From a virus (Duplodnaviria; Heunggongvirae; Uroviricota; Caudoviricetes): a stretch of 20,477 nucleotides of DNA. The notes under the pieces are model-generated. The model saw only the letters and a list, made by a program, of their open reading frames with translations, had not been told where the DNA came from and did not search any database. Shown here piece after piece: positions 1-14,480 of this stretch; the first letter of the stretch is position 1; each line of letters starts with the position of its first letter. The position numbers and the translations under genes were made by a program. The stretch covers positions 1 through 20,477 of IMG/VR virus record IMGVR_UViG_2703718852_000002; one strand, written 5' to 3'.

Positions 1-1053
1 TTACGGGGTAATGCCAACCGCTGCCGCCACTTTGTCGCCACTTGGCAGCGTTGCCAGAGGATTGAAACGGAGCGCCGTTTCCAGATGATCCGGTGCCAGA
101 TGTGCGTAACGCATAGTCATTTTTATATCGTGGTGTCCGAGAATTTTTTGTAAGGCCAGAATGTTTCCACCCGACATCATGAAGTGCGCCGCAAACGTAT
201 GGCGCAGAACGTGTGTGAGTTGACCGCGAGGGAGCACGATAGACGTTTTTTCCATCACGGATAAAAATTGAAAATAGCAGTCTGTGAAGAAATTGAACCC
301 ATCAAGCGCCATGATCTCTTCGTAAAGCTCTTTACTGATAGGGATGCTTCTGTTTTTCTTCCCCTTCGTTCTTACAAAGGTAATTCGGTATTTGGTCACC
401 TGTGAACGAGTAAGATTTACGGCTTCTCGCCAGCGTGCGCCTGTGCTTAAGCATATCTTAACTACCAGTGCCAGAATTGGGTCCTGACGTTTGCAATCAG
501 CCAGTAATTCAACAATCTGCTCATGGGTAAGCCATGCCATCTCTTTTTCTGCGATGGTGAATTTTCGCATGTTCTCCAGTGGGTTCGGATACGACCATTC
601 GCCCAGGCGGGATAGTTCGCTAAAAACACTACTTAGATAGCTTTGCTCCAGGTTAATGGTGACCGGGCTTGCTCCTTTCTTCCATTTCTCGCTGAAGTAG
701 ATCTCACCTGTCAGGCGTTTATCTCGATAGTGGGCAAACATTTTAGAGGTTAGATCAGTTGCAAGGGGATTGCCCAGAGCGTCAACCATCAGCAGCAATT
801 TGTCATAGACATGCTGCCCAGCAGTCAGTGATTTACCATGTAGTTTGAACCATAGCTCAACCACGTCTTTCAGTGTTCGACGATCCACTGATTCACCTAG
901 CCAGGGCTTTGCTTCGGTTTCTTCCATCGTGTGACGCTCAAAAGCCAGTGCTTCGCCTTTGGTGGCGAATTGTTTACGCACACGACGCCCACTACGTCCG
1001 GCGGGGTAACATTCGCAAAGCCATTTTCCTGTGGTGAGTTTTCGTACAGCCAT
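1..1053 (-). CDS. int: Tyrosine integrase, P2/186 family
   Basis: Translation from MAVRKLTTGKW... is integrase-like, with a C-terminal catalytic region (LRHTFAAHF ... HHDIKMTMRYAHL). GGAGGG RBS lies 7 nt upstream of the ATG at 1051-1053. The ORF-track start at 1131 is judged an upstream in-frame extension. Stop codon is at 1-3. Confidence 0.9.
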   Translation of the reverse strand: MAVRKLTTGKWLCECYPAGRSGRRVRKQFATKGEALAFERHTMEETEAKPWLGESVDRRTLKDVVELWFKLHGKSLTAGQHVYDKLLLMVDALGNPLATDLTSKMFAHYRDKRLTGEIYFSEKWKKGASPVTINLEQSYLSSVFSELSRLGEWSYPNPLENMRKFTIAEKEMAWLTHEQIVELLADCKRQDPILALVVKICLSTGARWREAVNLTRSQVTKYRITFVRTKGKKNRSIPISKELYEEIMALDGFNFFTDCYFQFLSVMEKTSIVLPRGQLTHVLRHTFAAHFMMSGGNILALQKILGHHDIKMTMRYAHLAPDHLETALRFNPLATLPSGDKVAAAVGITP

Positions 1054-1241
1054 AAAAAATGCCCTCCAATAGAGAGCATTTTTACTGTATGTATAACCAG
1101 TGTCAATGTATGAAATCCTGCGACCATACATCTCACTGAAGCCATAATGAAGTAGGCTATTCTTTTTGCTATGTGATCATGTAACTTTTGCGGTTAACCT
1201 GTGGCTCATTTTTATTTTAGGCGCAGATATAAAAGCAAAAG

Positions 1242-1448: not shown

Positions 1449-2018
1449 CTATTTAACATACTTGACTGTTAAACTTATAATTTTACCAATTATTTCAATG
1501 TCTTCTATCTTACATTCAAAGGCTCTGTTTCCACCCTCGACGAAGATTCTTCCACCGGGTAAACGAGTAATGTCACGGATCGTTATTTCGCCATCAATAC
1601 TTATTACCCATTTACCATCACGTATATCATCAAATTCCTTATCACAAATAAATTCAGAATTATTATCTGTGATTACAAAAAGATTCTTGAATGCCGACGG
1701 TAGAAATTCTCTATCGAAAATATAAAAACCGTCTTCACACAAGGCCCCATCAGATAATACATATTTAGCAACTTCCATAGTATTTGTATTACCTGAAGTT
1801 TGCTTTGAACCATGCCCGGTTGTGAGCCAATTAAGCGAGGTGCCTGTTTCAAGGGCGCACTGGATTACCCATTCTGCTGGGAATGAGTCACGCATGTAGC
1901 GTGTGGCGAGTGTACTTTTAGAGATTCCTAAATGATCGCACAACGCCTGTCGAGTCTTGAATCCATAAGCTTCTACCATGCGCTCTATGGCGCCTCGTCC
2001 GCCTTTCTCCAAATTCAT
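1449..2018 (-). CDS. cI: CI-type immunity repressor, phage 186 CI-like (about 189 aa)
   Basis: Size and position match 186 CI (192 aa), transcribed divergently from apl/cII and upstream of int. GGAG RBS lies 5 nt before the ATG at 2016-2018; the GTG at 2022-2024 is an alternative start. Confidence 0.8.
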   Translation of the reverse strand: MNLEKGGRGAIERMVEAYGFKTRQALCDHLGISKSTLATRYMRDSFPAEWVIQCALETGTSLNWLTTGHGSKQTSGNTNTMEVAKYVLSDGALCEDGFYIFDREFLPSAFKNLFVITDNNSEFICDKEFDDIRDGKWVISIDGEITIRDITRLPGGRIFVEGGNRAFECKIEDIEIIGKIISLTVKYVK

Positions 2019-2042
2019 GGTCACTCCAAGTGAACTTTTATC

Positions 2043-3948: not shown

Positions 3949-4802
3949 GCACCATCCTGAAATGGGCGGGAAATAAAACTGCCATAATGTCCGAACTGAA
4001 AAAACATCTTCCTGCTGGCCCGCGACTGGTTGAACCTTTCGCGGGTTCCTGTGCTGTGATGATGGAGACGGATTATCCCAGCTATCTGGTTGCGGATATT
4101 AATCCTGATTTAATCAACCTCTATAAAAAGGTTGCCGCTGATTGTGAATCGTTTATATCTCGCGCCAGAGTTTTATTTGAGATCGCAAACAGGGAAGTGG
4201 CTTATTACAACATAAGGCAGGAGTTTAATTACTCAACTGAAATTACTGATTTCATGAAAGCGGTATATTTCCTGTATCTCAATCGTCACGGTTACCGTGG
4301 TTTATGTCGCTATAACAAGAGCGGGCATTTCAACATTCCCTACGGTAATTATAAAAATCCGTATTTCCCTGAAAAAGAAATTCGCGCATTTGCAGAAAAG
4401 GCCCAGCGAGCAACGTTTATCTGCGCCAGCTTTGATGAAACGCTGGCGATGTTGAAGGCGGGGGATGTGGTGTATTGCGATCCGCCGTATGACGGTACGT
4501 TTTCCGGCTATCACACTGACGGCTTCACTGAAGATGACCAGTATCACCTGGCATCTGTTCTTGAACATCGGTCATCAGAAGGACATCCGGTCATTGTTTC
4601 TAACAGTGACACATCCCTGATCCGTTCGCTGTATCGCAATTTTACTCACCACTACATCAAGGCAAAACGCAGCATCGGTGTGGCAGCTGGCGAGGGTAAA
4701 TCAGCAACAGAAATCATTGCTGTTTCCGGGCCGCGCTGCTGGGTGGGATTTGATTATTCGCGTGGCGTGGATAGTTCTGCCGTGTACGGAGTACGTGCAT
4801 GA
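3945..4802 (+). CDS. DNA adenine (N6) methyltransferase, Dam family, orphan
   Basis: N-terminus [12 protein letters not shown], AdoMet motif PFAGSCAV and catalytic DPPY (YCDPPYDG). GGAGG RBS upstream of ATG at 3945. No adjacent restriction endonuclease gene. Confidence 0.85.
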
Positions 4803-7213
4803 GTCATGCCGATATGAACAACTGCTGCGGCTTTAACGAAGCTGCCGCATCGTTCTCATGGAACAGCTCGAAAAAGGCCATTAACCCTTATCTGGACCCG
4901 GTGGAAGTTGCGCCGGTTTCTACGCTTTCAAACCTGATCACTCTGTACGCTGCCGATAACGAGCAGGAACAGCTGCGCCGTGAGGCGCTGAGTGATCAGG
5001 TCTGGGAGCGTTATTTCTTTAATGAATCCCGTGATCCTGTCCAGCGCGAAATGGAACAGGATAAGCTCATTAGTCGGGCAAAGCTGGCGCATGAGCAGCA
5101 GCGTTTTAATCCGGATATGGTCATTCTGGCGGACGTCAACGCCCAGCCTTCCCATATCAGCAAGCCGCTGATGCAACGTATTGAATACTTCAGCAGCCTG
5201 GGCAGGCCAAAGGCTTATTCCCGCTATTTACGTGAGACGATTAAGCCATGTCTGGAACGACTGGAGCATGTACGCGACAGTCAGCTATCTGCATCTTTTC
5301 GCTTTATGGCAAGCCATGAAGGGCTGGACGGCCTGCTGATCCTGCCTGAAATGAGTCAGTTTCAGGTGAAACGCCTGTCCACCCTGGTAGCTGCGCATAT
5401 GAGTATGTGCCTTGATGCCGCTTGTGGCGATTTGTATGCCACCGATGACGTTAAGCCAGAAGAAATCCGCAATACATGGGAAAGGGTGGCAGCGGAAACC
5501 CTGCGTCTGGATGTCATCCCGCCTGCGTTTGAGCAACTCCGTCGGAAAAGAAACCGCCGTAAACCCGTGCCCTATGAACTCATTCCGGGTTCGCTGGCGC
5601 GTATGTTGTGCGCCGACTGGTGGTATCGGAAATTATGGAAGATGCGTTGCGAATGGCGGGAAGAGCAGTTGCGTGCTGTCTGCCTTGTCAGCAAAAAAGC
5701 ATCTCCCTATGTCAGCTATGAAGCCGTGTTGCATAAACGTGAGCAGCGCCGTAAGTCGCTGGAGTTTTTCCGTTCTCATGAACTGGTGAACGAAGACGGC
5801 GACACGCTGGACATGGAGGATGTGGTAAACGCCAGCAGCAGCAACCCTGCGCATCGCCGCAATGAGATGATGGCCTGTGTTAAAGGTCTGGAGCTTATCG
5901 CGGAAATGCGCGGTGACTGCGCCGTTTTCTACACCATCACCTGTCCGTCACGTTTCCATTCCACGCTAAATAACGGCAGGCCCAACCCGACCTGGACAAA
6001 TGCGACGGTAAGACAAAGCAGCGATTATCTGGTCGGTATGTTTGCTGCATTTCGTAAGGCGATGCACAAAGCCGGGTTGCGCTGGTATGGCGTGCGGGTG
6101 GCTGAGCCGCATCACGACGGCACAGTTCACTGGCACCTGTTGTGTTTCATGCGCAAAAAAGACCGCCGCGCCATTACAGCATTGTTGCGTAAGTTTGCTA
6201 TCCGTGAAGACCGCGAGGAGCTGGGCAATAACACGGGGCCGCGCTTTAAGTCTGAGCTGATTAACCCGCGCAAAGGAACGCCGACAAGCTACATAGCGAA
6301 ATACATCAGTAAGAACATTGACGGGCGTGGTCTGGCTGGCGAGATCAGCAAGGAAACGGGTAAATCTCTGCGTGATAACGCTGAATACGTGAATGCCTGG
6401 GCGTCTTTGCATCGTGTTCAGCAATTCCGCTTCTTTGGCATTCCGGGGCGTCAGGCTTACCGTGAACTGCGATTGCTGGCTGGTCAGGCGGCAAGGCAAA
6501 AGGGGGACAAAAAAGCAGGTGCGCCGGTACTGGATAACCCGCGCCTTGATGCCATCCTGGCTGCTGCTGATGCTGGTTGTTTTGCCACCTACATCATGAA
6601 GCAGGGCGGCGTACTGGTTCCCCGTAAATATCACCTCATCAGAACCGCTTATGAAATCAACGAAGAGCCGACCGCCTATGGCGATCACGGCATTCGTATT
6701 TATGGCATCTGGTCACCCATTGCAGAGGGCAAGATCTGCACTCATGCAGTGAAGTGGAAAATGGTTCGTAAAGCCGTTGACGTTCAGGAGGCGGCAGCCG
6801 ACCAGGGCGCTTGCGCCCCTTGGACTCGTGGCAATAACTGTCCCCTTGCTGAAAATTTGAACCAACAGGAGAAAGATAAATCAGCTGATGGGGACCCCAG
6901 AACGGACATTACCAGCATGGATGACAAGGAGTTGCACGATTACCTGCACAGTATGAGCAAAAAAGAGCGCCGGGAACTGGCAGCAAGGTTACGCCTGGTG
7001 AAACCGAAACGGCGTAAAGACTACAAACAGCGAATTACAGACCATCAGCGACTGCAGCTCGTGTATGAGCTGAAGTCCAGAGGATTTGATGGCAGCGAGA
7101 AAGAGGTCGATTTACTCCTTCGCGGAGGCAGTATTCCGTCAGGAGCAGGCCTGCGTATCTTCTATCGGAACCAGCGTTTGCAGGAAGATGATCAGTGGCG
7201 GAACCTGTATTAA
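4799..7213 (+). CDS. Replication initiation protein, P2 gpA-like rolling-circle endonuclease (804 aa)
   Basis: HUH-type motif ([15 protein letters not shown]) and paired-tyrosine motif (YIAKYISK) typical of RCR initiators. Size and position match P2/186 gene A. ATG overlaps the dam stop (ATGA at 4799-4802). Confidence 0.9.
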
Positions 7214-7307
7214 TTACGCGGGTTAACAATTCGTGCTCTTAATAATACCAGGCATATCAGGCTGATGAACGTAAAAAAACGTTTTACATCAGTAAGATTA
7301 TTATATA

Positions 7308-7323
7308 CTGTAAATATAAACAG
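7308..7323. promoter_or_regulatory. LexA box (SOS operator) CTGTAAATATAAACAG upstream of the tum/DinI-like operon
   Basis: Exact CTGT-N8-ACAG palindrome with an AT-rich centre and TA/TG flanks (tactgtaaatataaacagtg). Overlaps candidate -10 TATACT at 7304-7309; candidate -35 TTTACA at 7283-7288. Confidence 0.7.
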
Positions 7324-7366
7324 TGGTTATACATACAGTATTGCGTGTGGTGTCATAGGAGGAAAG

Positions 7367-7555
7367 ATGCAGGACTATTTTTTGGAGTCTTTGAAGCTCC
7401 AGCGCATTGATTTTTTTCTTAAGCTTGTAGCGGCTAGTGAGTGTAGTGATGAAGAGAAGGGGCTGGCTCTGCAGTGGGTTTCTGAATTGACTGATGAACT
7501 CATGGCAAAAATCAGAACCCACGAATACAACCGCTCAATGGATGTCATCAGCTGA
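7367..7555 (+). CDS. Hypothetical 62-aa protein, first gene of the SOS-controlled operon (possible antirepressor N-terminal module)
   Basis: ATG at 7367 with a strong AGGAGG RBS, about 45 nt downstream of the LexA box. The ORF-track start at 7265 would include the operator and is rejected. Confidence 0.5.
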   Translation: MQDYFLESLKLQRIDFFLKLVAASECSDEEKGLALQWVSELTDELMAKIRTHEYNRSMDVIS

Positions 7556-7565
7556 GGTGACTTTT

Positions 7566-7799
7566 ATGCGCATTGAAATAATGATCGATAAAGAGCAGAA
7601 GATTAGCCAGTCTACCCTGGACGCCCTTGAATCCGAGCTTTACCGCAATCTGCGCCCCCTGTATCCCAAAACGGTAATTCGCATTCGCAAAGGTAGCTCT
7701 AACGGTGTGGAACTAACCGGACTGCAACTGGACGAAGAAAGAAAACAAGTGATGAAAATTATGCAGAAGGTGTGGGAAGACGACAGCTGGCTGCATTAA
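7566..7799 (+). CDS. DinI-family protein (77 aa), as in the C-terminal part of 186 Tum
   Basis: MRIEIMIDKEQ... aligns by eye with E. coli DinI (MRIEVTIAK...; conserved W-E/D-D..W near the C-terminus). AGGTGA RBS upstream. Sits under the LexA-box promoter. Confidence 0.8.
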   Translation: MRIEIMIDKEQKISQSTLDALESELYRNLRPLYPKTVIRIRKGSSNGVELTGLQLDEERKQVMKIMQKVWEDDSWLH

Positions 7800-7933
7800 G
7801 AAACGTTGCTGGCGTCTGAACTTGCTTCTGGCGTCAGCAAGGTTGAACAACGAGCCCTTGCGAGGCGTTAGCTCTGTAGTGCATGTCTATGCCGCATGAG
7901 ATCGCATGATCGTTTGAGGATCGTTTTTGCTAA

Positions 7934-7958
7934 GGCCCGCCAGAACTGGCGGGCTTTT
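7934..7958 (+). terminator. Rho-independent terminator closing the early/SOS region
   Basis: GC-rich stem ggcccgccag / ctggcgggc with a short loop, followed by TTTT at 7955-7958. Confidence 0.6.
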
Positions 7959-8196
7959 GCGTAGATCATGCAGGTGCATGAAAACCACTACATAAAGCGG
8001 GCAGGCGTGGCGGGGATACGAGCGCGCGCTGATAGGGTAATCGTCAAAACAGGCATCAGCTAGGTTGAGTTGTAGCGGTGCTTAAGTTTGCTCGTTGTTT
8101 GATAGAGCTTAATGTATGTAATTGCCTACAGCTGTGGTTATCTATTAACATGTAAGGATAAGGTCACTTGCTCGCTGCCATTAGAAGAGGAACTGG

Positions 8197-8667
8197 ATGT
8201 CTATCGAGGAAAAATTTTTTAGTGATATCGATTTAAAAGATCCGTTTTTTAACAGCCTAAGAGCTGATTATGAAGGATTTGATGTTTGGTTTCTCTCAAA
8301 AGGTAAAAATAAGGCGTTTGTATCACGTAATGAATTAGGTGAAATCGATGGTTTTCTCTATTTGAAAATAGAAGATGAAGAGTTGAGTGATATGACTCCA
8401 ACGTTTCCAAAGATGAAGCGAGTAAAGCTTGGCACATTTAAAATCGATGCTCATGGAACCAAACTTGGAGAGCGTTTTATTAGAATTATGTTTCAATTTG
8501 CTATGAGAAACAAACTAAAAGAAGTATATGTTACTATATTTGATAAGCATTCAGGATTAATTCGCTTATTAACTAAATATGGTTTTGTTTTAAAGGCGAG
8601 GAAAAATCTTTCTACGATTAATGGGCAAGAAGGTGTATACTTTAAAAACTTGGTATGGAAGGAGTAA
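8197..8667 (+). CDS. Cargo protein 1 (156 aa), unknown function; weak GNAT-like resemblance in the C-terminal half
   Basis: ATG at 8197 with AGAAGAGG RBS. AT-rich codon usage. Segment KLGERFIRIMFQFAMRNKLKEVYVTIFDKHSGLIRLLTKYGFVL is reminiscent of an acetyltransferase core but does not fit the canonical motif cleanly. Confidence 0.6.
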   Translation: MSIEEKFFSDIDLKDPFFNSLRADYEGFDVWFLSKGKNKAFVSRNELGEIDGFLYLKIEDEELSDMTPTFPKMKRVKLGTFKIDAHGTKLGERFIRIMFQFAMRNKLKEVYVTIFDKHSGLIRLLTKYGFVLKARKNLSTINGQEGVYFKNLVWKE

Positions 8668-8670
8668 AAA

Positions 8671-9252
8671 ATGAGCTATGCTAATTATCCCTTAGTCAAA
8701 TTGCAGGGGAGAAATTATTTATTAAGTATTTATCCTGCATGGCATACACGTCTTTTCCCTGAGTCAAAACTCCACAATGAGAGTGCTGGTATCATCGCTG
8801 ATATATCACATACCAACAGTATTGAAAAAGTATACTTAACAAAAATGCATGGGGTAGCCAGCCTAAAGCCTGGAGATAATTTGCTTATTTATCGTACTTC
8901 AGATGGACAAGGTCCAGCTCGGTTTAGATCTGTTGCAACTTCAGTGTGTGTGGTTCAGGAAATTAAAGATATTCACGATTTCTTAACTTATGAGGAATTT
9001 AAGAATTACTGTGAACCTTATAGCGTTTTTGATGAAGATGAGTTACAGCTTCTATATATGAAAAAAAATTATCCGATAATTATACGGTTTACTTATAATT
9101 TCCCTTTGGAAAAAAGAGTTATTCGTGATGAAATCATGAATATTACAGGTTATACCAATAGTGATTATTGGGGTTTTTTACCACTAACTGATTCAGCATT
9201 TAAGCAGATTGTCTTACAGGGAGGTGTTGATGAAAGTTTTATTATCGATTAA
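8671..9252 (+). CDS. Cargo protein 2 (193 aa), unknown function
   Basis: ATG at 8671, 3 nt after the stop of cargo 1, with GGAAGGAG RBS. Overlaps the start of cargo 3. No recognisable motif. Confidence 0.6.
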   Translation: MSYANYPLVKLQGRNYLLSIYPAWHTRLFPESKLHNESAGIIADISHTNSIEKVYLTKMHGVASLKPGDNLLIYRTSDGQGPARFRSVATSVCVVQEIKDIHDFLTYEEFKNYCEPYSVFDEDELQLLYMKKNYPIIIRFTYNFPLEKRVIRDEIMNITGYTNSDYWGFLPLTDSAFKQIVLQGGVDESFIID

Positions 9253-9601
9253 GCCAGAGTATGCAGAGAGTATACTTTCTGGTAAAAAAAAATATGAGTT
9301 TCGGAAAAATATTTTTAGAAATAAAAATGTTGATACGATAGTTATTTACGCAACGATGCCGGTTGGCAAAGTAATAGGTGAATTTAAAGTAGGAGATATT
9401 CTTGCTCTATCCCCTTCAGAATTGTGGGATAAAACGAAAGCTCATGCAGGAATTACACATTCTTTTTTTAAAGATTATTTCCACCAAAGAGAAAAGGCTT
9501 TTGCTATTTCCATCAAAAGCCCTAAAAGATATAAATTCCCTGTCGACTTAAATGAGTTGATTCCCGGCGGCGTCGCCCCACAGTCTTATCGTTATTTATA
9601 A
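9230..9601 (+). CDS. Cargo protein 3: ASCH-domain (PUA-like) protein (123 aa)
   Basis: ATG at 9230 preceded by GGAGGTG RBS. N-terminal MKVLLSIKPEYAESILSGKKKYEFRK carries the ASCH signature GxKxxExR seen in E. coli YqfB (GRKTITIR). Confidence 0.65.
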   Translation: MKVLLSIKPEYAESILSGKKKYEFRKNIFRNKNVDTIVIYATMPVGKVIGEFKVGDILALSPSELWDKTKAHAGITHSFFKDYFHQREKAFAISIKSPKRYKFPVDLNELIPGGVAPQSYRYL

Positions 9602-10141
9602 TGTTGTCTGGGCATGTTTCTTAACCATGCCCAGTTTTTCTAGGGCAATAGATAAATCGTTTGTTGTTGGGGATTCTAAGATAATTAATGGTACATTGAT
9701 TTTATTTGTAACATATTTTGCGTTTTCTCTTTCAGCTTCCATCAGCTTATTTAAATCATAAGTAATATCACTCCCATCTCGTTTCATTATTCGTTCTCTA
9801 ATTGTATCGGGAGACTCCTCAACTAAAATTACTCCATCTAGCCCCATTTCCTCAAATACTTCTTGCTTGAGAACTTCAATATCTCCATTTTTATTTATTA
9901 AGGTAAAATGACCATCCAATAAAATATTGGATACCTTTAACTTTAATGCATTAAGTGCCGTAAGTAATATTGATTGGTTTTTATCAGGTGTGGCCGTTAA
10001 CTTACTGTTATCAAATTTAATATTAGAATTATTTTTTATAAGTTCGCTTGCGCTTACATGAGTTACCCCGAAATCATCTTTTGCAAATGAACACAAGTAA
10101 CCTTTGCCTACACCATGAACACCTGCTATGAAAATTAACAT
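9596..10141 (-). CDS. Cargo protein 4: small P-loop NTPase / nucleotide-kinase-like protein (181 aa)
   Basis: Walker A motif at the N-terminus (IFIAGVHGVGKGYL) and Walker B-like hhhhDG (ILLDGHF). ATG at 10139-10141 with GGAGG RBS. Convergent with cargo 3; the 3' ends overlap by 6 nt. Confidence 0.7.
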   Translation of the reverse strand: MLIFIAGVHGVGKGYLCSFAKDDFGVTHVSASELIKNNSNIKFDNSKLTATPDKNQSILLTALNALKLKVSNILLDGHFTLINKNGDIEVLKQEVFEEMGLDGVILVEESPDTIRERIMKRDGSDITYDLNKLMEAERENAKYVTNKINVPLIILESPTTNDLSIALEKLGMVKKHAQTTL

Positions 10142-10206: not shown

Positions 10207-10584
10207 ATGAAGTTTCAAGCTATATCGATTTTGACTCCAGCGGTAGAAAATATTATAAATGGTTCTAAATCTATCGAAATACGGTCGTGGTATCCTGAAA
10301 CGATACCATTAAAAAACGTCATTCTTGTTCAGAATGATAAATATCTTAAAAATCAAAGCGATATAGATCATGGGGTGGCTATGGCTATTGTCGATTTTGT
10401 TTCAGTTAGAAATTGGTCATATGAGGATTACTTAAAACAAAACCAAGAAACAACTCTTAATAAGCCTTGGTCTCCAGGTTATTATGTGTGGGAAATTAAA
10501 AATGTTAGAATTTTAAAAAAATCTATTCCTTGTGTGGCGAGGAAAGGTATTTATACAATAGATTTAAATATGGATTATATATAA
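10207..10584 (+). CDS. Cargo protein 5: second ASCH-domain (PUA-like) protein (125 aa)
   Basis: ATG at 10207 with GAGGA RBS. Motif NGSKSIEIRSW fits the ASCH GxKxxExR signature. Divergent from cargo 4. Confidence 0.65.
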   Translation: MKFQAISILTPAVENIINGSKSIEIRSWYPETIPLKNVILVQNDKYLKNQSDIDHGVAMAIVDFVSVRNWSYEDYLKQNQETTLNKPWSPGYYVWEIKNVRILKKSIPCVARKGIYTIDLNMDYI

Positions 10585-10595
10585 GGTATTGTGAG

Positions 10596-11387
10596 ATGTG
10601 TGGTGCCATTCTTCGAAATATTAAGCGTTATGCCATTATTTATTCACTGTTGTTTTTGGCTTTTATTTTAATGCTGATAGTGTTTGTTAGCTATGTTTGT
10701 AAATTTGGAGTGTATTCATGGAGTGATTCCGTAGAGAAATGGGGACAGTTTGGCGATTATATTGGTGGTGTACTGAATCCTGCTCTGGCCTTTATCTCTA
10801 TCATGCTTGTTTGTTTCACACTATATTCTACATCTAGGCAGTCATCTATTCAGTCATTCGAGTCTGTGTTATTTGAGTTACTAAGATTTCATAAAGATAA
10901 CTTATCAGAAATTAAAACAACGTATTCAGATGGAAAAGTGTATGTAGGACGGGAGGCTCTTTCATTATACATTACCGAAGTGAAGTTTAACCTACTTAAT
11001 ATTGTGGATGATTCACTTCCTTTGGATGAAAGGTTAGAGCTTTCAGTTAATATGGTTTATCTGGAAGGTGACAATTTTGCGAATGTGGGACATTATTTCA
11101 GGAATATTTACCATATTTTTAAACATATCAATGACTCTAACTATTTGACTGAGAAAGAAAAAACCAAGTATGCGAAATTAGTTAGAGCACAAATATCTTC
11201 TATAGAATCTGGCGCGATGCTATTAAATGGTTTTTCATCGGTAGGAAAGCCTGCCAAGAAATTTATTGAAAAATATTCTCTCCTTCAGGGGTTTAGTTTA
11301 AGTAAGGAATTCAAGCAGCAATTACATGATTTAGGTGCCTTAAAATTATACGATGACGTTGCTTATGAGGATAAAAAAGGGCATTAA
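10596..11387 (+). CDS. Cargo protein 6: membrane protein with two N-terminal TM helices and a cytoplasmic C-terminal domain (263 aa); candidate effector
   Basis: ATG at 10596, 12 nt after the cargo 5 stop. Hydrophobic segments IIYSLLFLAFILMLIVFVSYV and LNPALAFISIMLVCFTLYS. The ORF-track start at 10530 is TTG inside cargo 5 and is rejected. Confidence 0.6.
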   Translation: MCGAILRNIKRYAIIYSLLFLAFILMLIVFVSYVCKFGVYSWSDSVEKWGQFGDYIGGVLNPALAFISIMLVCFTLYSTSRQSSIQSFESVLFELLRFHKDNLSEIKTTYSDGKVYVGREALSLYITEVKFNLLNIVDDSLPLDERLELSVNMVYLEGDNFANVGHYFRNIYHIFKHINDSNYLTEKEKTKYAKLVRAQISSIESGAMLLNGFSSVGKPAKKFIEKYSLLQGFSLSKEFKQQLHDLGALKLYDDVAYEDKKGH

Positions 11388-12230
11388 ATGCCCTTATCTT
11401 GGTCAAGGATGTAGTCATTAAATGACACAATATTTTGATTTATCCAGGTGTTTAGCTCAACTAGTCTTTTCTGCAAAGGAACCAACTCATTTCTGACAAA
11501 AACCTTCGCGGCTTTTTCCACATCCCCAAACCCTCCAACATTATTAGGCATAATCCCCATCATTTGCGGCGGCACGCGGTGCGCAGCCATCATGTCATCA
11601 CGGCTCACGTTCTTGATATTCAGAAACTCATCCTTCGCCGCAACTTCTGACAATGGGATAATCTGAAGCCCGTCCTTTTTGCCGTTAGGCGAGTACATAA
11701 ACAGGTTGCGGAAGTTGCCCGGACCTTTGGCGCTTTTCATCGCATTGCGGAGGTTGTTCACATCTTCCTGGTTCTGCGCGGCATCGGTCATGTACATGAT
11801 GAAGCCTGCATGACTGCCGTTAATGTAATACTTCCGGCGGAACAGCGTGGCGGACTCGTTGAGCAGGGCTGACGGAATGGCAGAAAGATAACCTGGCAGG
11901 CCGTAGATCTCCTGGTTGATGTCCGGTTCCATCAGATGAAAAATGCTGCCTTTCGTGAACTGATACGGCTGGGTTGTCATACCGTATTGCACAAACCAGT
12001 AGGTATCCAGGTCTAACCCGCGTCGGGTATATTTTGCCAGAGCAGGCTCAAGGGCGATAACTTCACCGAAGCGGTTCGTGCGTTTCTCCAGGTAGGCGTT
12101 ACCAAATACCAGATAGTCCTGCACAAAACGTGAAAAAGCCTGCTGGCTGAGCAGCGGGTGAGGGATGTAGGTACTGGTCAGAATGTTGCATTTTACTGCA
12201 ATCGGTGACCGGAAGCAGAGCCGGTAATGG
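11384..12230 (-). pseudogene. Q: Portal protein gene remnant (P2 gpQ-like), 5' part deleted
   Basis: The C-terminal ~270 aa of the 317-aa ORF read as a P2-family portal (...AAHRVPPQMMGIMPNNVGGFG...FNDYILDQDKGI). The N-terminal ~30 aa of the ORF are antisense to the J remnant and not portal-like. Upstream boundary is approximate. Confidence 0.6.
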
Positions 12231-12439
12231 CAGCGGCAAAAGCCAGTCTGCAGAAGTACATTGCCAGCCAGACGAGGCTTGGTCGGGATATTCGCCGTAG
12301 CGCCATCTTTGCTGCTCTGCATGTTGAGGGTGTTCAACGTGTGGAACTGGCTTCTCCGCTGGCGGATGTGGTCCTGAACAAAACACAGGCGGCATCATGT
12401 ACGCAGTGGAGCGTAACCAACGGAGGAACGGATGAATAG
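12227..12439 (+). pseudogene. J: Baseplate protein J gene remnant (3' end only)
   Basis: A 70-aa ORF ending 5 nt into gene I, where the gpJ C-terminus would sit. No full-length J upstream; abuts the portal remnant. Confidence 0.45.
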
Positions 12440-13037
12440 TCTGCTGCCACCGGGTTCAACTTCACTGGAGCGCCGACTGGCGCAAACCTGTAGCGGGATT
12501 TCTGATTTGCAGGTGCCGCTGCGTGACTTGTGGAATCCGGCTACCTGTCCGGTCAGCTTCCTGCCTTATCTCGCCTGGGCGTTCTCTGTGGATCGCTGGG
12601 ACGAGGGCTGGACAGAAAGCGTCAAACGCCAGGTAGTGAAGGATGCTTTTTATATTCATCAGCATAAAGGAACCACCAGTGCCGTGCGGCGGGTGGTGGA
12701 ACCGTTCGGATTCCTGATCCGCATTATTGAGTGGTGGCAGACCGGAGAAACACCGGGCACGTTTCGCCTGGATATCGGCGTGCAGGACCAGGGCATCACT
12801 GAAGATACCTATCTGGAACTTGAGCGACTGATAAGCGATGCCAAACCATGTAGCCGCCACATGATCGGCATGTCCATCAATCTGCAGACCAGCGGCCCGC
12901 ATTGGGTGGGAGCCGCCAGCTATCTTGGCGAAGAAATCACGATCTATCCGTATATCAACGAAACGATTATTTCCGGTGGCACCGCGCATGAAGGCGGGGC
13001 GGTCCATGTTATTGACACAATGAGAGTGAATCCATGA
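12432..13037 (+). CDS. I: Baseplate/tail protein gpI (201 aa)
   Basis: LRDLWNPATCPVSFLPYLAWAFSVDRWDEGW...GTFRLDIGV matches P2 gpI as recalled. GGAGGA RBS. Stop overlaps the H start. Confidence 0.8.
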   Translation: MNSLLPPGSTSLERRLAQTCSGISDLQVPLRDLWNPATCPVSFLPYLAWAFSVDRWDEGWTESVKRQVVKDAFYIHQHKGTTSAVRRVVEPFGFLIRIIEWWQTGETPGTFRLDIGVQDQGITEDTYLELERLISDAKPCSRHMIGMSINLQTSGPHWVGAASYLGEEITIYPYINETIISGGTAHEGGAVHVIDTMRVNP

Positions 13038-14480
13038 GCACAAAATTTTATACCCTGCTGACGGATATTGGCGCGGCGAAACTTGCCAGCGCCGCCGCGC
13101 TCGGTGTGCCGCTAAAAATTACCCATATGGCGGTGGGCGATGGCGGTGGAGTATTGCCAACGCCGGACGCAAAGCAGACGGCACTGGTAAATGAGAAACG
13201 CCGGGCTGCGCTGAATATGCTTTATATCGACCCGCAGAACAGCAGCCAGATTATTGCCGAACAGGTGATCCCTGAAAACGAGGGCGGTTGGTGGATACGT
13301 GAAGTGGGCTTGTTTGATGAGTCCGGGGCATTGATTGCCGTGGGCAACTGCCCGGAAAGCTATAAGCCGCAACTGGCTGAAGGTAGCGGGCGCACTCAGA
13401 CCGTGCGCATGGTGCTGATTACCAGCAGCACGGACAATATCACCCTGAAAATCGACCCTGCTGTAGTGCTGGCAACCCGCAAGTATGTGGATGACAAGGC
13501 ACTGGAGCTGAAGGTGTACGCGGATGATCAGATGGCAAAACATCTTGCCGCACCGGACCCGCATTCACAGTACGCGCCAAAAGCCAGCCCGACATTTACC
13601 GGAACCCCCAAAGCGCCAACGCCAGCGGCGGGGAATAATACCACGCAGGTTGCGACCACTGCGTTTGTACAGGCGGCACTGACGGCCCTTATTAATGGTG
13701 CGCCAGCCACGCTGGACACGCTGAAAGAAATAGCCGCAGCCATTAACAATGATCCGAATTTCAGTACCACCATTAACAATGCGCTGGCACTAAAAGCACC
13801 GTTGTCGAGTCCGGCACTCACCGGAACGCCAACAGCCCCCACGGCGGCGCAGTCGGTCAACAATACACAGATTGCCACTACGGCTTTTGTGAAATCGGCG
13901 ATTGCAGGAATGGTGGGTTCTGCACCTGCTGCACTGGATACACTGAACGAACTGGCGGCGGCACTGGGGAATGATCCGAACTTTGCCACGACAATGCTTA
14001 ATGCGCTGGCAGGTAAACAACCGCTGGACAATACGCTTACCAATTTGAGTGGAAAGGATGTGGCTGGTCTTCTCGCATACCTTCAATTGGGAGAAGCGGC
14101 AAAACGGGATGTCGGAACCGGTAATAATCAACTCCCGGACATGTCCGCATTTGGTATGTCGCGAAACGGACAAACTGCCTGGGATATTCTCCCAAATGGT
14201 ATGATTCGACAGGCTGGCACTGTGACACTGACACCAGTTGGTAACTTCAACGAAATTGTTCTTGGTGGAGTGACGTACTACACCCATTACTACAGGGTTA
14301 ATTTCCCCAGACAATTCCCAAATGCACAAATAGCAACGCTGGCAACACTAGCGAGCTCAGAGTTTTCGAAACAGACAACAATGGCCGGAAAATCACTGGC
14401 AACGCATCGCGATACTGATTCTGGCACTGACGTATCAAGAACGCGATTCACTGTGGCGTACGGCAGCAGTAACTCGAACC
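13034..14480 (+). pseudogene. H: Tail fiber gene H, N-terminal ~480 codons, 3' part deleted and fused to the T remnant
   Basis: MSTKFYTLLTDIGAAKLASAAALG...MAVGDGGG...ESYKPQLAEGSGR...LDTLNELAAALGNDPNFATTMLNALAGKQP is P2 gpH-like. After about 14470 the frame reads low-complexity Cys/Arg-rich text, and no G/tail-fiber-assembly gene follows. Confidence 0.7.

Follow-up and report, generated by a model that had tools for sequence, protein, structure and literature searches.

Is a tum locus that reads as two open reading frames a natural pair of genes, or a single gene broken by a frameshift? The question is raised by a stretch of 20,477 nucleotides from a tailed-phage record (IMG/VR record IMGVR_UViG_2703718852_000002; Caudoviricetes), called the window here, in which two short open reading frames, ORF1 and ORF2, follow one another behind a LexA box. 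The initial annotation described them as an SOS-controlled module resembling tum of coliphage 186, and this description is supported by the LexA box and by the relationship of both ORFs to Tum. The locus in the window is a natural two-gene operon and not a frameshifted tum, and the split state is the normal and long-standing one in the Fels-2/DuoHS-type lineage. The locus is very likely the operon for SOS induction that belongs to a 186-like prophage (Peduoviridae) of the Fels-2/DuoHS type; its form is the two-gene one, tumA/tumB.

The SOS promoter and its operator

The gene for gpA ends at 7213 and cos lies at 8004–8022; the SOS promoter is found between them. Its elements are:

7273–7288, plus strand: A-tract (7273–7279) and -35 element TTTACA (7283–7288) of the SOS promoter, which by conservation and analogy is the candidate equivalent of 186 p95
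7306–7325, plus strand: LexA operator, core CTGT-N8-ACAG at 7308–7323; its first six bases, TACTGT, form the candidate -10 hexamer
7321–7340, plus strand: conserved region with a second ACAGT arm (7335–7339), exactly 15 nt past the first arm

The LexA box at 7308–7323, which the initial annotation had placed over a candidate -10 element, is borne out. It is exact (CTGTAAATATAAACAG) and is the sole CTGT-N8-ACAG in the 20.5-kb window, where 0.12 are expected by chance and 12 of 100 shuffles contain at least one. The 20-mer around it (TACTGTAAATATAAACAGTG, 7306–7325) has three mismatches to the LexA consensus, a score equalled in none of 100 shuffles, and it is identical in Fels-2 and in the DuoHS prophage of E. 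coli HS. The 36 related loci come from many enterobacterial genera; in 34 of them, the arms of the box are constant and the central spacer is variable.

Where does transcription start? A generic sigma-70 promoter scan detected no promoter at the operon, because the -10 hexamer is weak: TACTGT (7306–7311) agrees with TATAAT at three of six positions. The placement of the promoter rests on conservation and on analogy with p95 as annotated in phage 186. In the 186 record, TACTGT is annotated as the -10 of p95, and the LexA site begins with these same six bases; there, it is preceded by TTCACA at a distance of 18 nt, and in the window by TTTACA at 17 nt. In an alignment of 35 ORF1-type loci, AAAAA...TTTAC is kept throughout. 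By this analogy, the segment 7283–7311 is a candidate equivalent of p95, and the window has the arrangement of a 186-type SOS operon, with a LexA operator over the -10 between gene A and cos.

The second ACAGT arm sets these promoters apart from those of the 186 type. The pattern CTGT-N8-[AC]CAGT-N10-ACAGT is present in 23 of 35 ORF1-type loci versus none of 81 186-type loci. The 20-mer at 7321–7340 has five mismatches to the LexA consensus, with a left arm of GTGG instead of CTGT. The arm is possibly a weak, overlapping LexA-like site or an element of the 5'-UTR.

Two proteins related to the two halves of Tum

The promoter is followed by two genes:

7367–7555, plus strand: ORF1, a tumA-like antirepressor gene of 62 aa, homologous to the N-terminal half of Tum (ATG at 7367, TGA at 7553–7555)
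7566–7799, plus strand: ORF2, a tumB gene of 77 aa and of the DinI family by Pfam match (ATG at 7566, TAA at 7797–7799)

The Shine-Dalgarno sequence of ORF1 is AGGAGG at 7357–7362, and that of ORF2, GAGG at 7554–7557, overlaps the stop codon of ORF1.

The DinI-like nature that the initial annotation had given to the 77-aa ORF was confirmed by a match to Pfam DinI (PF06183) above the curated threshold (81.3 bits against a cut-off of 24.2; E 6.6e-23), which covers the full domain (profile positions 1–63 of 63). ORF2 is 78% identical to TumB of PSP3 and 41% identical to residues 71–145 of 186 Tum (75 aa, E 3e-24), and is thus a homologue of the C-terminal half of Tum. It also matches the structure of E. 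coli DinI (1GHH; E 2.7e-6), to which it aligns over the full length, including the acidic C-terminal helix. The chromosomal DinI differs in having 81 aa, whereas ORF2 is phage-borne and would be co-transcribed with an antirepressor gene.

The relationship of ORF1 to the N-terminal half of Tum is more distant. BLASTP found no similarity between ORF1 and either 186 Tum or PSP3 TumA, and PSP3 TumA alone matched the ORF1 profile weakly (8.7%); the homology of ORF1 and Tum therefore rests on profiles. When the ORF1 family was aligned by hhalign with the family of the 186 Tum N-terminal half, the match had a probability of 96.5% (E 8e-10) and was colinear over residues 1–43, compared to 0.1% for a reversed control and at most 3.3% for column-shuffled controls. 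Closer relatives are found among phages of the split type that have been characterised: ORF1 is 98.4% identical to STM2728 of Fels-2 and shares 61 of 62 residues with ECHS_RS04495 of E. coli HS, and is orthologous to both.

The 62-aa gene occurs in 1144 of 5426 complete E. coli genomes (about 21%), and it is labelled 'hypothetical protein' in all annotated RefSeq and phage records inspected. No match was found for ORF1 in Pfam or PADLOC, and it falls into phrog_698, which PHROGs labels 'unknown function'. AlphaFold2 predicts a helical hairpin (pLDDT 89), for which neither Foldseek against the PDB nor a profile search among PDB sequences returned a meaningful match. Both genes are under strong purifying selection, with a dN/dS of 0.066 for ORF1 and 0.076 for ORF2.

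Two genes rather than a broken tum

A gap of 10 nt parts ORF1 from ORF2, whose frame is +1 with respect to that of ORF1; there is no single polypeptide of about 146 aa containing both modules. Two ORFs at this distance and in different frames make the locus a split tumA/tumB variant and not the fused form of 186. Separate antirepressor and DinI-family genes stand behind one LexA-controlled promoter, in a layout that matches Fels-2 and DuoHS. Both genes are present in 23 related loci and are separate in all 23, with spacers of 8–12 nt and in all three relative frames; 13 further related loci have ORF1 without a DinI gene. The length of ORF1 is constant at 62 aa across relatives, and the Shine-Dalgarno sequence and ATG of each ORF are kept across many genera. 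No fusion to DinI was found among 66 representatives of the ORF1 family drawn from 1.84 billion proteins. The long proteins that resembled fusions in this exhaustive search were upstream-extension calls, chimeras or low-complexity sequences, and none was a DinI fusion.

Could the two ORFs nevertheless be the pieces of one tum, broken by an indel, with at least one of them a non-functional remnant? The frame of ORF2 is open for 25 codons 5' of its ATG, so that, formally, one indel towards the end of ORF1 would be enough to join them, and a single 146-aa ORF is present in phage 186 and in its 79 nearest relatives among those sampled. Decay by frameshift is excluded by the dN/dS values of about 0.07 for both ORFs, by the constant length of ORF1, and by the split in 23 of 23 loci in all three frames. 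The conserved translation signals and the lack of any fusion within the ORF1 family point the same way, and the ORF1 orthologue is functional in E. coli HS, which makes a broken tum scarcely credible. The initial annotation had offered both a natural two-gene arrangement and a frameshifted tum, and the selection on the two ORFs and the 23 split relatives decide for the former. It had also envisaged a conserved two-ORF layout with neither ORF related to Tum; the layout is indeed conserved, yet each ORF is related to a half of Tum.

A different objection concerns ORF1 itself, which might be an unrelated small protein in an operon that serves as a LexA-controlled modulator of RecA (a moron) and not as a prophage inducer. 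This would agree with the negative BLASTP result against Tum, with the lack of a Pfam or PADLOC match and of a PHROGs function, and with a predicted fold that is a generic helical hairpin without a significant match in the PDB. It is most improbable, however, given that the profile homology to the N-terminal half of Tum withstands its controls, that ORF1 and the LexA box persist together in the 13 loci without a DinI gene, and that E. coli HS lost induction when only the 98%-identical gene was deleted. In that strain, mitomycin C no longer caused lysis or virion foci once ECHS_RS04495 ('tum') had been deleted in frame, and lexA(Ind-) had the same effect (Ortiz de Ora et al. 2025, PMC12055606).

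If the two-gene operon is the normal state in this lineage, how did the fused Tum of 186 arise? The 186 record annotates a nested 77-codon tum product with a GTG start, to which ORF2 corresponds, and the N-terminal half of 186-type Tum also exists alone, as a 63-aa protein. The 146-aa Tum of 186 is probably a derived fusion that has retained, within the gene, a ribosome-binding site and a GTG start that serve its DinI half. A terminator-like hairpin reported by the scanner over the ORF1 stop codon and the ORF2 ribosome-binding site (7544–7561) was considered as a device for translational coupling and rejected, being unconserved and of unremarkable stability (z = -1.1).

Related SOS operons

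The two-gene SOS operon is already known, both from the split in Fels-2 and PSP3 (PMC3121763) and from the 'tum' knockout in E. coli HS (PMC12055606). A near-identical relative is DuoHS, which has the same chromosomal site and gene order as the element in the window (rcdA, prophage, ybjL) and carries tum (ECHS_RS04495) followed by the DinI-like ECHS_RS04500, as ORF1 is followed by ORF2. The -35, LexA box, Shine-Dalgarno sequence and 10-nt spacer are identical to those of the window, as are all 189 residues of CI and, as noted above, 61 of 62 residues of ORF1. In contrast to the element in the window, DuoHS is a complete, inducible phage and has one more gene, located after tumB and before cos. 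The window element lacks the portal-baseplate segment of about 9.6 kb and most of the tail module, and carries other cargo past cos.

According to PMC3121763, tum is split in two by a stop codon in both Fels-2 and PSP3, and in PSP3 the antirepressor activity is in the upstream gene. Fels-2 STM2728 and STM2726.1 repeat the layout of the window: an ORF of 189 nt, a gap of 10 nt and a DinI-family ORF of 234 nt. Fels-2 differs in having a third gene, STM2726, past tumB, and a CI of 210 aa that is 70% identical to the CI of the window in the N-terminal domain and 26% in the C-terminal domain. The PSP3 record annotates adjacent tumA and tumB genes behind a LexA box and downstream of gene A. However, its 60-aa TumA has no BLAST similarity to ORF1 and only the weak profile match given above, and the two genes are in frame, with a spacer of 3 nt and a single stop codon parting tumA from tumB.

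In coliphage 186, the SOS operon (p95-tum-t95a-orf97-t95b) likewise lies between gene A and cos and has its LexA site over a TACTGT -10. The N-terminal half of Tum resembles ORF1 at the profile level and the C-terminal half is 41% identical to ORF2, but both halves are in one 146-aa polypeptide, where the window has two genes. The window also lacks orf97, and has a hairpin without a U-run where 186 has the canonical terminator t95a.

The dinI-gfoA/gftA operons of Gifsy-1, -2 and -3 are comparable in logic, being LexA-repressed and encoding a DinI homologue and a small antirepressor that acts against a non-cleavable repressor (PMC3121763). In these lambdoid phages, dinI comes first and the repressors are unrelated. 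The window operon, in which the order is reversed and which belongs to a P2/186-like prophage, is not of the Gifsy type.

Downstream of the operon

Four features follow the last stop codon of the operon:

7802–7844, plus strand: 17-bp stem-loop directly past the stop codon, with covariation
7845–7871, plus strand: junction motif GAACAACGAG...GCGAGGCGTTAG, conserved in relatives
7935–7958, plus strand: probable intrinsic terminator (GCCCGCCA-GAAC-TGGCGGGC-TTTT), read from the sequence and conserved in relatives
8004–8022, no strand assigned: cos cohesive-end site GGCGTGGCGGGGATACGAG, aligned to the point where the right and left ends of the 186 genome meet

The stem at 7802–7844 is paired in 92% of cells, versus 32–50% when the partner strand is slid. 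Compensatory changes occur at seven pairs, and the covariation score was reached in none of 500 shuffles; the G-U pairs favour an RNA of the plus strand. The likeness to t95a, a partial terminator in 186, is one of position only, since the stem-loop has no U-run. An Rfam scan of 7000–8300 gave no credible match, the hairpin included. In relatives, a third, variable gene starts with an ATG 7–9 nt past the GAGG of the junction motif; this gene is present in E. coli HS and Fels-2 and absent from the window.

The SOS transcript probably ends just before cos, at the predicted terminator at 7935–7958, which the terminator scanner missed because it has only four T. The cos site of 186 is annotated at 1–19, and that of the window is the right-hand limit of the phage early region. 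A candidate defence cassette adjoins cos.

The repressor and the state of the prophage

The presumed target of ORF1 is encoded on the opposite strand:

1449–2024, minus strand: CI immunity repressor (Pfam Phage_CI_repr and Phage_CI_C)

The type of ORF1 goes with the class to which the CI N-terminal domain belongs (26 to 1 versus 1 to 67), an association that is inflated by shared ancestry. It persists even at about 30% identity in gpA, which is encoded between the two; one locus (L107) is an exception, with an ORF1-type gene and a 186-class CI. The association is at the class level only, as ORF1 and CI show no fine-scale covariation (Spearman about 0). Among ORF1-type loci, the N-terminal domain of CI is 56–95% identical and the C-terminal domain only 25–42%.

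The prophage in the window is defective, with two internal deletions relative to DuoHS of E. coli HS. It has lost the head, lysis and most tail genes. Its int, CI, Cox/Apl-like gene, CII and gpA remain intact, as does the SOS operon, at 97.9% identity to HS. Because the prophage is defective, the operon cannot give virions in the genome of the window.

Does the module then still serve to induce its own phage, or is it an inert remnant, or one kept for some other purpose? Co-resident prophages whose CI has an N-terminal domain of the same class could be targets of TumA in trans, host RecA could be modulated by TumB, and SOS-triggered expression of the early genes and the replicase could alter host survival. 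Such roles would fit the survival of the regulatory and replication genes and of the SOS operon despite two deletions, the conservation of the CI N-terminal domain over the C-terminal one among ORF1-type loci, and the trans-acting antirepressors documented between prophages for Gifsy and Fels-1 (PMC3121763). Against this, nothing suggests that selection has had time to act on a remnant since the deletions arose, the near-identity to functional prophages means that conservation here reflects recent ancestry, and no co-resident prophage is visible in the window. On balance, we consider the loss of the inducing role somewhat unlikely. A bolder proposal, to which we give little credence, is that TumA of the Fels-2/DuoHS type recognises CI by its DNA-binding domain, the conserved N-terminal one, and could relieve repression in trans across Fels-2-like prophages despite the 25–42% identity of their CI C-terminal domains, so that a defective remnant co-induces intact neighbours, and that the second ACAGT arm and the covarying 3' hairpin add layers of regulation absent in 186 (extra LexA occupancy, transcript processing, or read-through into the variable third gene).

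A model for induction

The preferred reading, an SOS induction operon of the tumA/tumB form, suggests the following course of events. In the undamaged cell, LexA would sit on the operator over the -10 hexamer and block transcription. After DNA damage, active RecA would lead to the self-cleavage of LexA, the promoter would fire, and one SOS transcript would give two proteins. ORF1 would act as an antirepressor, inactivating the CI encoded 5.5 kb upstream and turning on the early lytic operon, probably by binding CI and blocking its binding to the operators. Direct binding of ORF1 to CI is suggested by analogy with 186 Tum, for which the biochemistry comes from Shearwin et al. (1998), as cited in PMC3121763. 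ORF2, as a stand-alone protein of the DinI family, would most likely bind RecA filaments and tune the SOS signal, a role suggested by its family membership. It would be dispensable for the antirepressor function. As regards this putative role of TumB, deletion of dinI homologues in Gifsy prophages caused no significant change in induction (PMC3121763).

For the window itself, sequence features, homology, conservation and purifying selection are directly established. The step to function leans on DuoHS, where tum and a cleavable LexA are both needed for induction by mitomycin C (PMC12055606); its antirepressor is 98% identical to ORF1, and its CI and operator are identical to those of the window.

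Implications

The antirepressor and the DinI module are found fused (186), adjacent (window) or uncoupled, which indicates that they are independent units. The biology of the two-gene operon is established and little in it is new; the double deletion, the covarying 3' hairpin, the second ACAGT arm and the candidate defence cassette, all side observations, are of more interest than the operon. The practical value lies in annotation. The profile link to the N-terminal half of Tum and the knockout in E. coli HS together lead us to annotate the ORF1 family as TumA-type antirepressors. The 62-aa gene now labelled 'hypothetical' is the one on which the response of these prophages to DNA damage depends.

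Prophage setting of the SOS operon

The SOS operon lies in a 186/Fels-2-like prophage of the Peduoviridae with a complete early region, which also carries genes for Cox/Apl-like, CII, Fil, DUF5347 and DUF2732 proteins, a DksA-type zinc finger and a Dam methylase. As in the phage 186 record, the operon is placed between gpA and cos; the latter was located from an alignment between the window and the two phage 186 genome ends joined together. The main features are:

1-1131 (-), integrase
1449-2024 (-), CI, the prophage immunity repressor
4799-7213, gpA replicase
7367-7555 (+), ORF1, tumA-like
7566-7799 (+), ORF2, tumB-like
7935-7958, probable intrinsic terminator upstream of cos, GCCCGCCA-GAAC-TGGCGGGC-TTTT
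8004-8022, cos, GGCGTGGCGGGGATACGAG

The terminator scanner gave no call for the probable terminator at 7935-7958, and small ORFs at 7868-8063, across the terminator and cos region, were rejected as spurious. A conserved 63-aa ORF between int and CI (1242-1433, -) belongs to phrog_6000 ('unknown function') and has an annotated counterpart in E. coli HS, ECHS_RS23290.

The stretch 42-7797 matches E. coli HS at 97.9%, and the immunity and SOS modules are intact. The prophage is defective (regions 11384-12440 and 13497-14459). Its portal gene is truncated and fused straight to the end of the baseplate J/gpI region, a junction at which about 9.6 kb of the E. coli HS prophage DuoHS, with terminase, capsid, lysis and baseplate genes, is missing. 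A second missing stretch begins at the tail fibre and its assembly gene and takes in most of the tape-measure gene, up to its end. Because of these structural-gene losses, the SOS operon can derepress early genes here but cannot yield virions.

Between cos and the portal remnant there is low-GC cargo, in which the PADLOC candidate defence system PDC-M11 was matched at 8197-9601, with the M11A gene split across two ORFs:

8197-8667, M11A, part 1 (profile positions 11-160 of 357)
8671-9252, M11A, part 2 (profile positions 166-357 of 357)
9209-9601, M11B, ASCH-domain protein
9596-10141 (-), AAA_17/thymidylate-kinase-like protein
10207-10584, ASCH-like protein
10530-11387, 285-aa protein with a putative AbiC abortive-infection domain

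LexA box and promoter

The exact LexA box at 7308-7323 described in the initial annotation was confirmed as the only CTGT-N8-ACAG in the window (CTGTAAATATAAACAG; chance expectation 0.12). The surrounding 20-mer (7306-7325) has at most three mismatches to the LexA consensus, and an equal match was found in none of 100 shuffles. The promoter scanner reported no promoter. In the phage 186 record, TACTGT is annotated both as the -10 of the SOS promoter p95 and as the start of the LexA site; the same hexamer lies at 7306-7311 in the window, with TTTACA 17 nt upstream, which by analogy supports the proposed overlap of the box with the -10 element. When 35 related upstream regions are aligned, conservation is seen in an A-tract, TTTAC, TATACTGT, AAACAGT, the ATG and its Shine-Dalgarno sequence. 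The 8 nt at the centre of the box change freely from region to region, as is expected of a LexA operator.

A second ACAGT arm is found at 7335-7339 (element 7321-7340), exactly 15 nt past the right arm of the box. It is kept in 23 of 35 loci carrying an ORF1 homologue (ORF1-type), compared with none of 81 carrying a 186-like Tum (186-type). As a LexA site the element is poor (left arm GTGG, five mismatches), and the arm could serve as a weak operator overlapping the box or as an element of the 5' UTR.

Relation of ORF1 to Tum

Is ORF1 related to Tum? BLASTP gave no alignment of ORF1 with 186 Tum or with PSP3 TumA. Its family was sampled as 484 clusters by a word-indexed search and, when 1.84 billion proteins were scanned exhaustively with HMMER, as 66 representatives at 50% identity. 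Members are nearly all 50-100 aa long, and no DinI fusion occurs in either collection. When the family alignment was compared by hhalign with that of the 186 Tum N-terminal half, the probability was 96.5% (E 8e-10), colinear over residues 1-43 in both, with a conserved Cys and a LAL-x-[WL]-x-x-E motif in register. Controls were clean: the reversed target alignment gave 0.1% and 30 column shuffles gave at most 3.3%. At the level of sequence families, this profile match identifies ORF1 as homologous to, though diverged from, the antirepressor half of Tum, and the tum-like character proposed for the module is upheld. AlphaFold2 predicts a two-helix hairpin (pLDDT 89), for which a structural-neighbour search returned nothing informative.

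Gene callers often lengthen ORF1 to 84-109 aa and ORF2 to 101 aa (regions 7265-7555 and 7494-7799); one example is a 96-aa ORF1 from an ATG at 7265, which starts upstream of the promoter. One UniRef cluster and a few phage records name ORF1 'levan regulatory protein'. The extended calls and this label look like annotation artefacts.

A natural pair or a frameshifted tum?

The two-ORF layout was borne out: products of 62 and 77 aa, encoded 10 nt apart in different frames, each ORF with its own Shine-Dalgarno sequence. The initial annotation left open whether this is a natural two-gene arrangement or a frameshifted tum. For comparison, 33 ORF1-type loci (one genome per species) and 80 186-type loci (viral contigs) were retrieved; with the 186 record itself, 81 186-type loci were scored. 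A fused tum, as in 186, was found in 79 of the 81. ORF1 is 62 aa long in almost all ORF1-type loci, and the DinI-family gene that follows it is a separate ORF in 23 of 23 loci, the window not counted, with spacers of 8, 9, 10, 11 or 12 nt and all three relative frames. Relative to the window, dN/dS is 0.066 for ORF1 and 0.076 for ORF2. The natural arrangement is favoured by the purifying selection, the universal split and the three frames, which speak against a frameshift; the split is the stable state of the ORF1 lineage.

The antirepressor half also occurs without the DinI half. ORF1 and the LexA box lack a DinI-family gene in 13 of 36 ORF1-type loci (L091, L095, L101, L105, L109-L116 and L118). 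In L120/L121 the N-terminal half of the 186-type Tum stands alone: the 'Tum protein' there has 63 aa, and unrelated cargo, a DNA methylase, comes after it. Both lineages can thus do without the DinI module, and these standalone and uncoupled forms indicate that the antirepressor and DinI modules are independent units. In the 186 record, a nested DinI-like product of 77 codons still has its AAGGAGG and GTG start. The fusion in 186 is probably the derived state, a direction that we infer.

The proposed target of ORF1

The LexA-box architecture, the homology, the selection and the genetic need for tum and a cleavable LexA are established here or elsewhere. By analogy with 186 Tum, ORF1 would bind CI and block its binding to DNA; for Tum, both activities were demonstrated biochemically (Shearwin et al. 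1998, as cited in Lemire et al., PMC3121763). Indirect support for binding comes from the co-occurrence of the ORF1 type with one class of CI N-terminal (HTH) domain (26 to 1 versus 1 to 67), a table inflated by shared ancestry. Six loci keep the association even though their gpA is only ~30% identical to that of the window. CI N-terminal identity to the window CI is 56-95% in ORF1-type loci and 33-48% in 186-class CI; the C-terminal domain is at 92% in L086, a close relative, but only 25-42% identical in the other ORF1-type loci. A direct interaction would more likely be with the N-terminal domain of CI. No fine-scale covariation between ORF1 and CI was found. One exception to the association is L107 (Pantoea stewartii ATCC 8199), where the gene is of the ORF1 type, the CI is of the 186 class and the LexA box has a mismatch (ACCAG).

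ORF2 and the operon end

That the DinI-like domain resides in a separate ORF is clear: ORF2 scores 81 bits against Pfam DinI (cut-off 24) and also matches the solved E. coli DinI. It is 41% identical to 186 Tum residues 71-145 and 78% identical to PSP3 TumB. Its role would be modulation of SOS, the weakest step, drawn from DinI family membership and the 186 record note 'modulates SOS induction'. We argue that ORF2 is accessory, since the DinI gene is missing from a third of loci and Gifsy dinI deletions had no phenotype (PMC3121763).

Directly 3' of the last stop codon there is a 17-bp hairpin (7802-7844) with strong covariation (92% paired, seven compensated pairs, score reached by 0 of 500 shuffles). 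Its G-U pairs favour an RNA from the sense strand. A U-run is absent, and Rfam gave no match. In relatives the hairpin sits after whichever gene ends the operon, and phage 186 has the partial terminator t95a at this position. After the hairpin comes a conserved motif, GAACAACGAG...GCGAGGCGTTAG (hairpin and motif, 7802-7871); in other loci, its GAGG lies 7-9 nt before the ATG of a variable third gene. Hairpin and motif together look like a conserved cassette junction or an attenuator.

Known relatives and significance

Similar operons have been described. The PSP3 GenBank record lists tumA as 'similar to 5' end 186 tum; UV induction of prophage' and tumB as 'similar to dinI and 3' end of 186 tum'. 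According to Lemire et al. (PMC3121763), a stop codon divides tum into two in both Fels-2 and PSP3, and in PSP3 the antirepressor activity belongs to the first of the two genes. Fels-2 STM2728 is 98.4% identical to ORF1, in the same layout (189 nt, 10-nt gap, 234 nt). The strongest prior evidence is from DuoHS, which shares its chromosomal site with the window prophage (rcdA/prophage/ybjL, ybjM). The DuoHS gene ECHS_RS04495 ('hypothetical protein', 189 nt) encodes a product identical to ORF1 at 61 of 62 residues, with a DinI-like gene 10 nt later; the CI proteins are identical (189/189), and the promoters do not differ from the -35 through the Shine-Dalgarno sequence. In E. coli HS, neither lysis nor virions could be induced by mitomycin C once ECHS_RS04495, there called tum, had been deleted in frame, or in a lexA(Ind-) background; an SOS reporter remained active in the strain without tum (Ortiz de Ora et al., PMC12055606). 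Thus, ORF1 is already genetically established as a LexA-controlled inducer in an essentially identical element.

The operon is known and has been characterised by experiment in near-identical prophages. In practical terms, the chief outcome is a gap in annotation: ORF1 is a widespread gene, present in ~21% of complete E. coli genomes, and is still labelled hypothetical.
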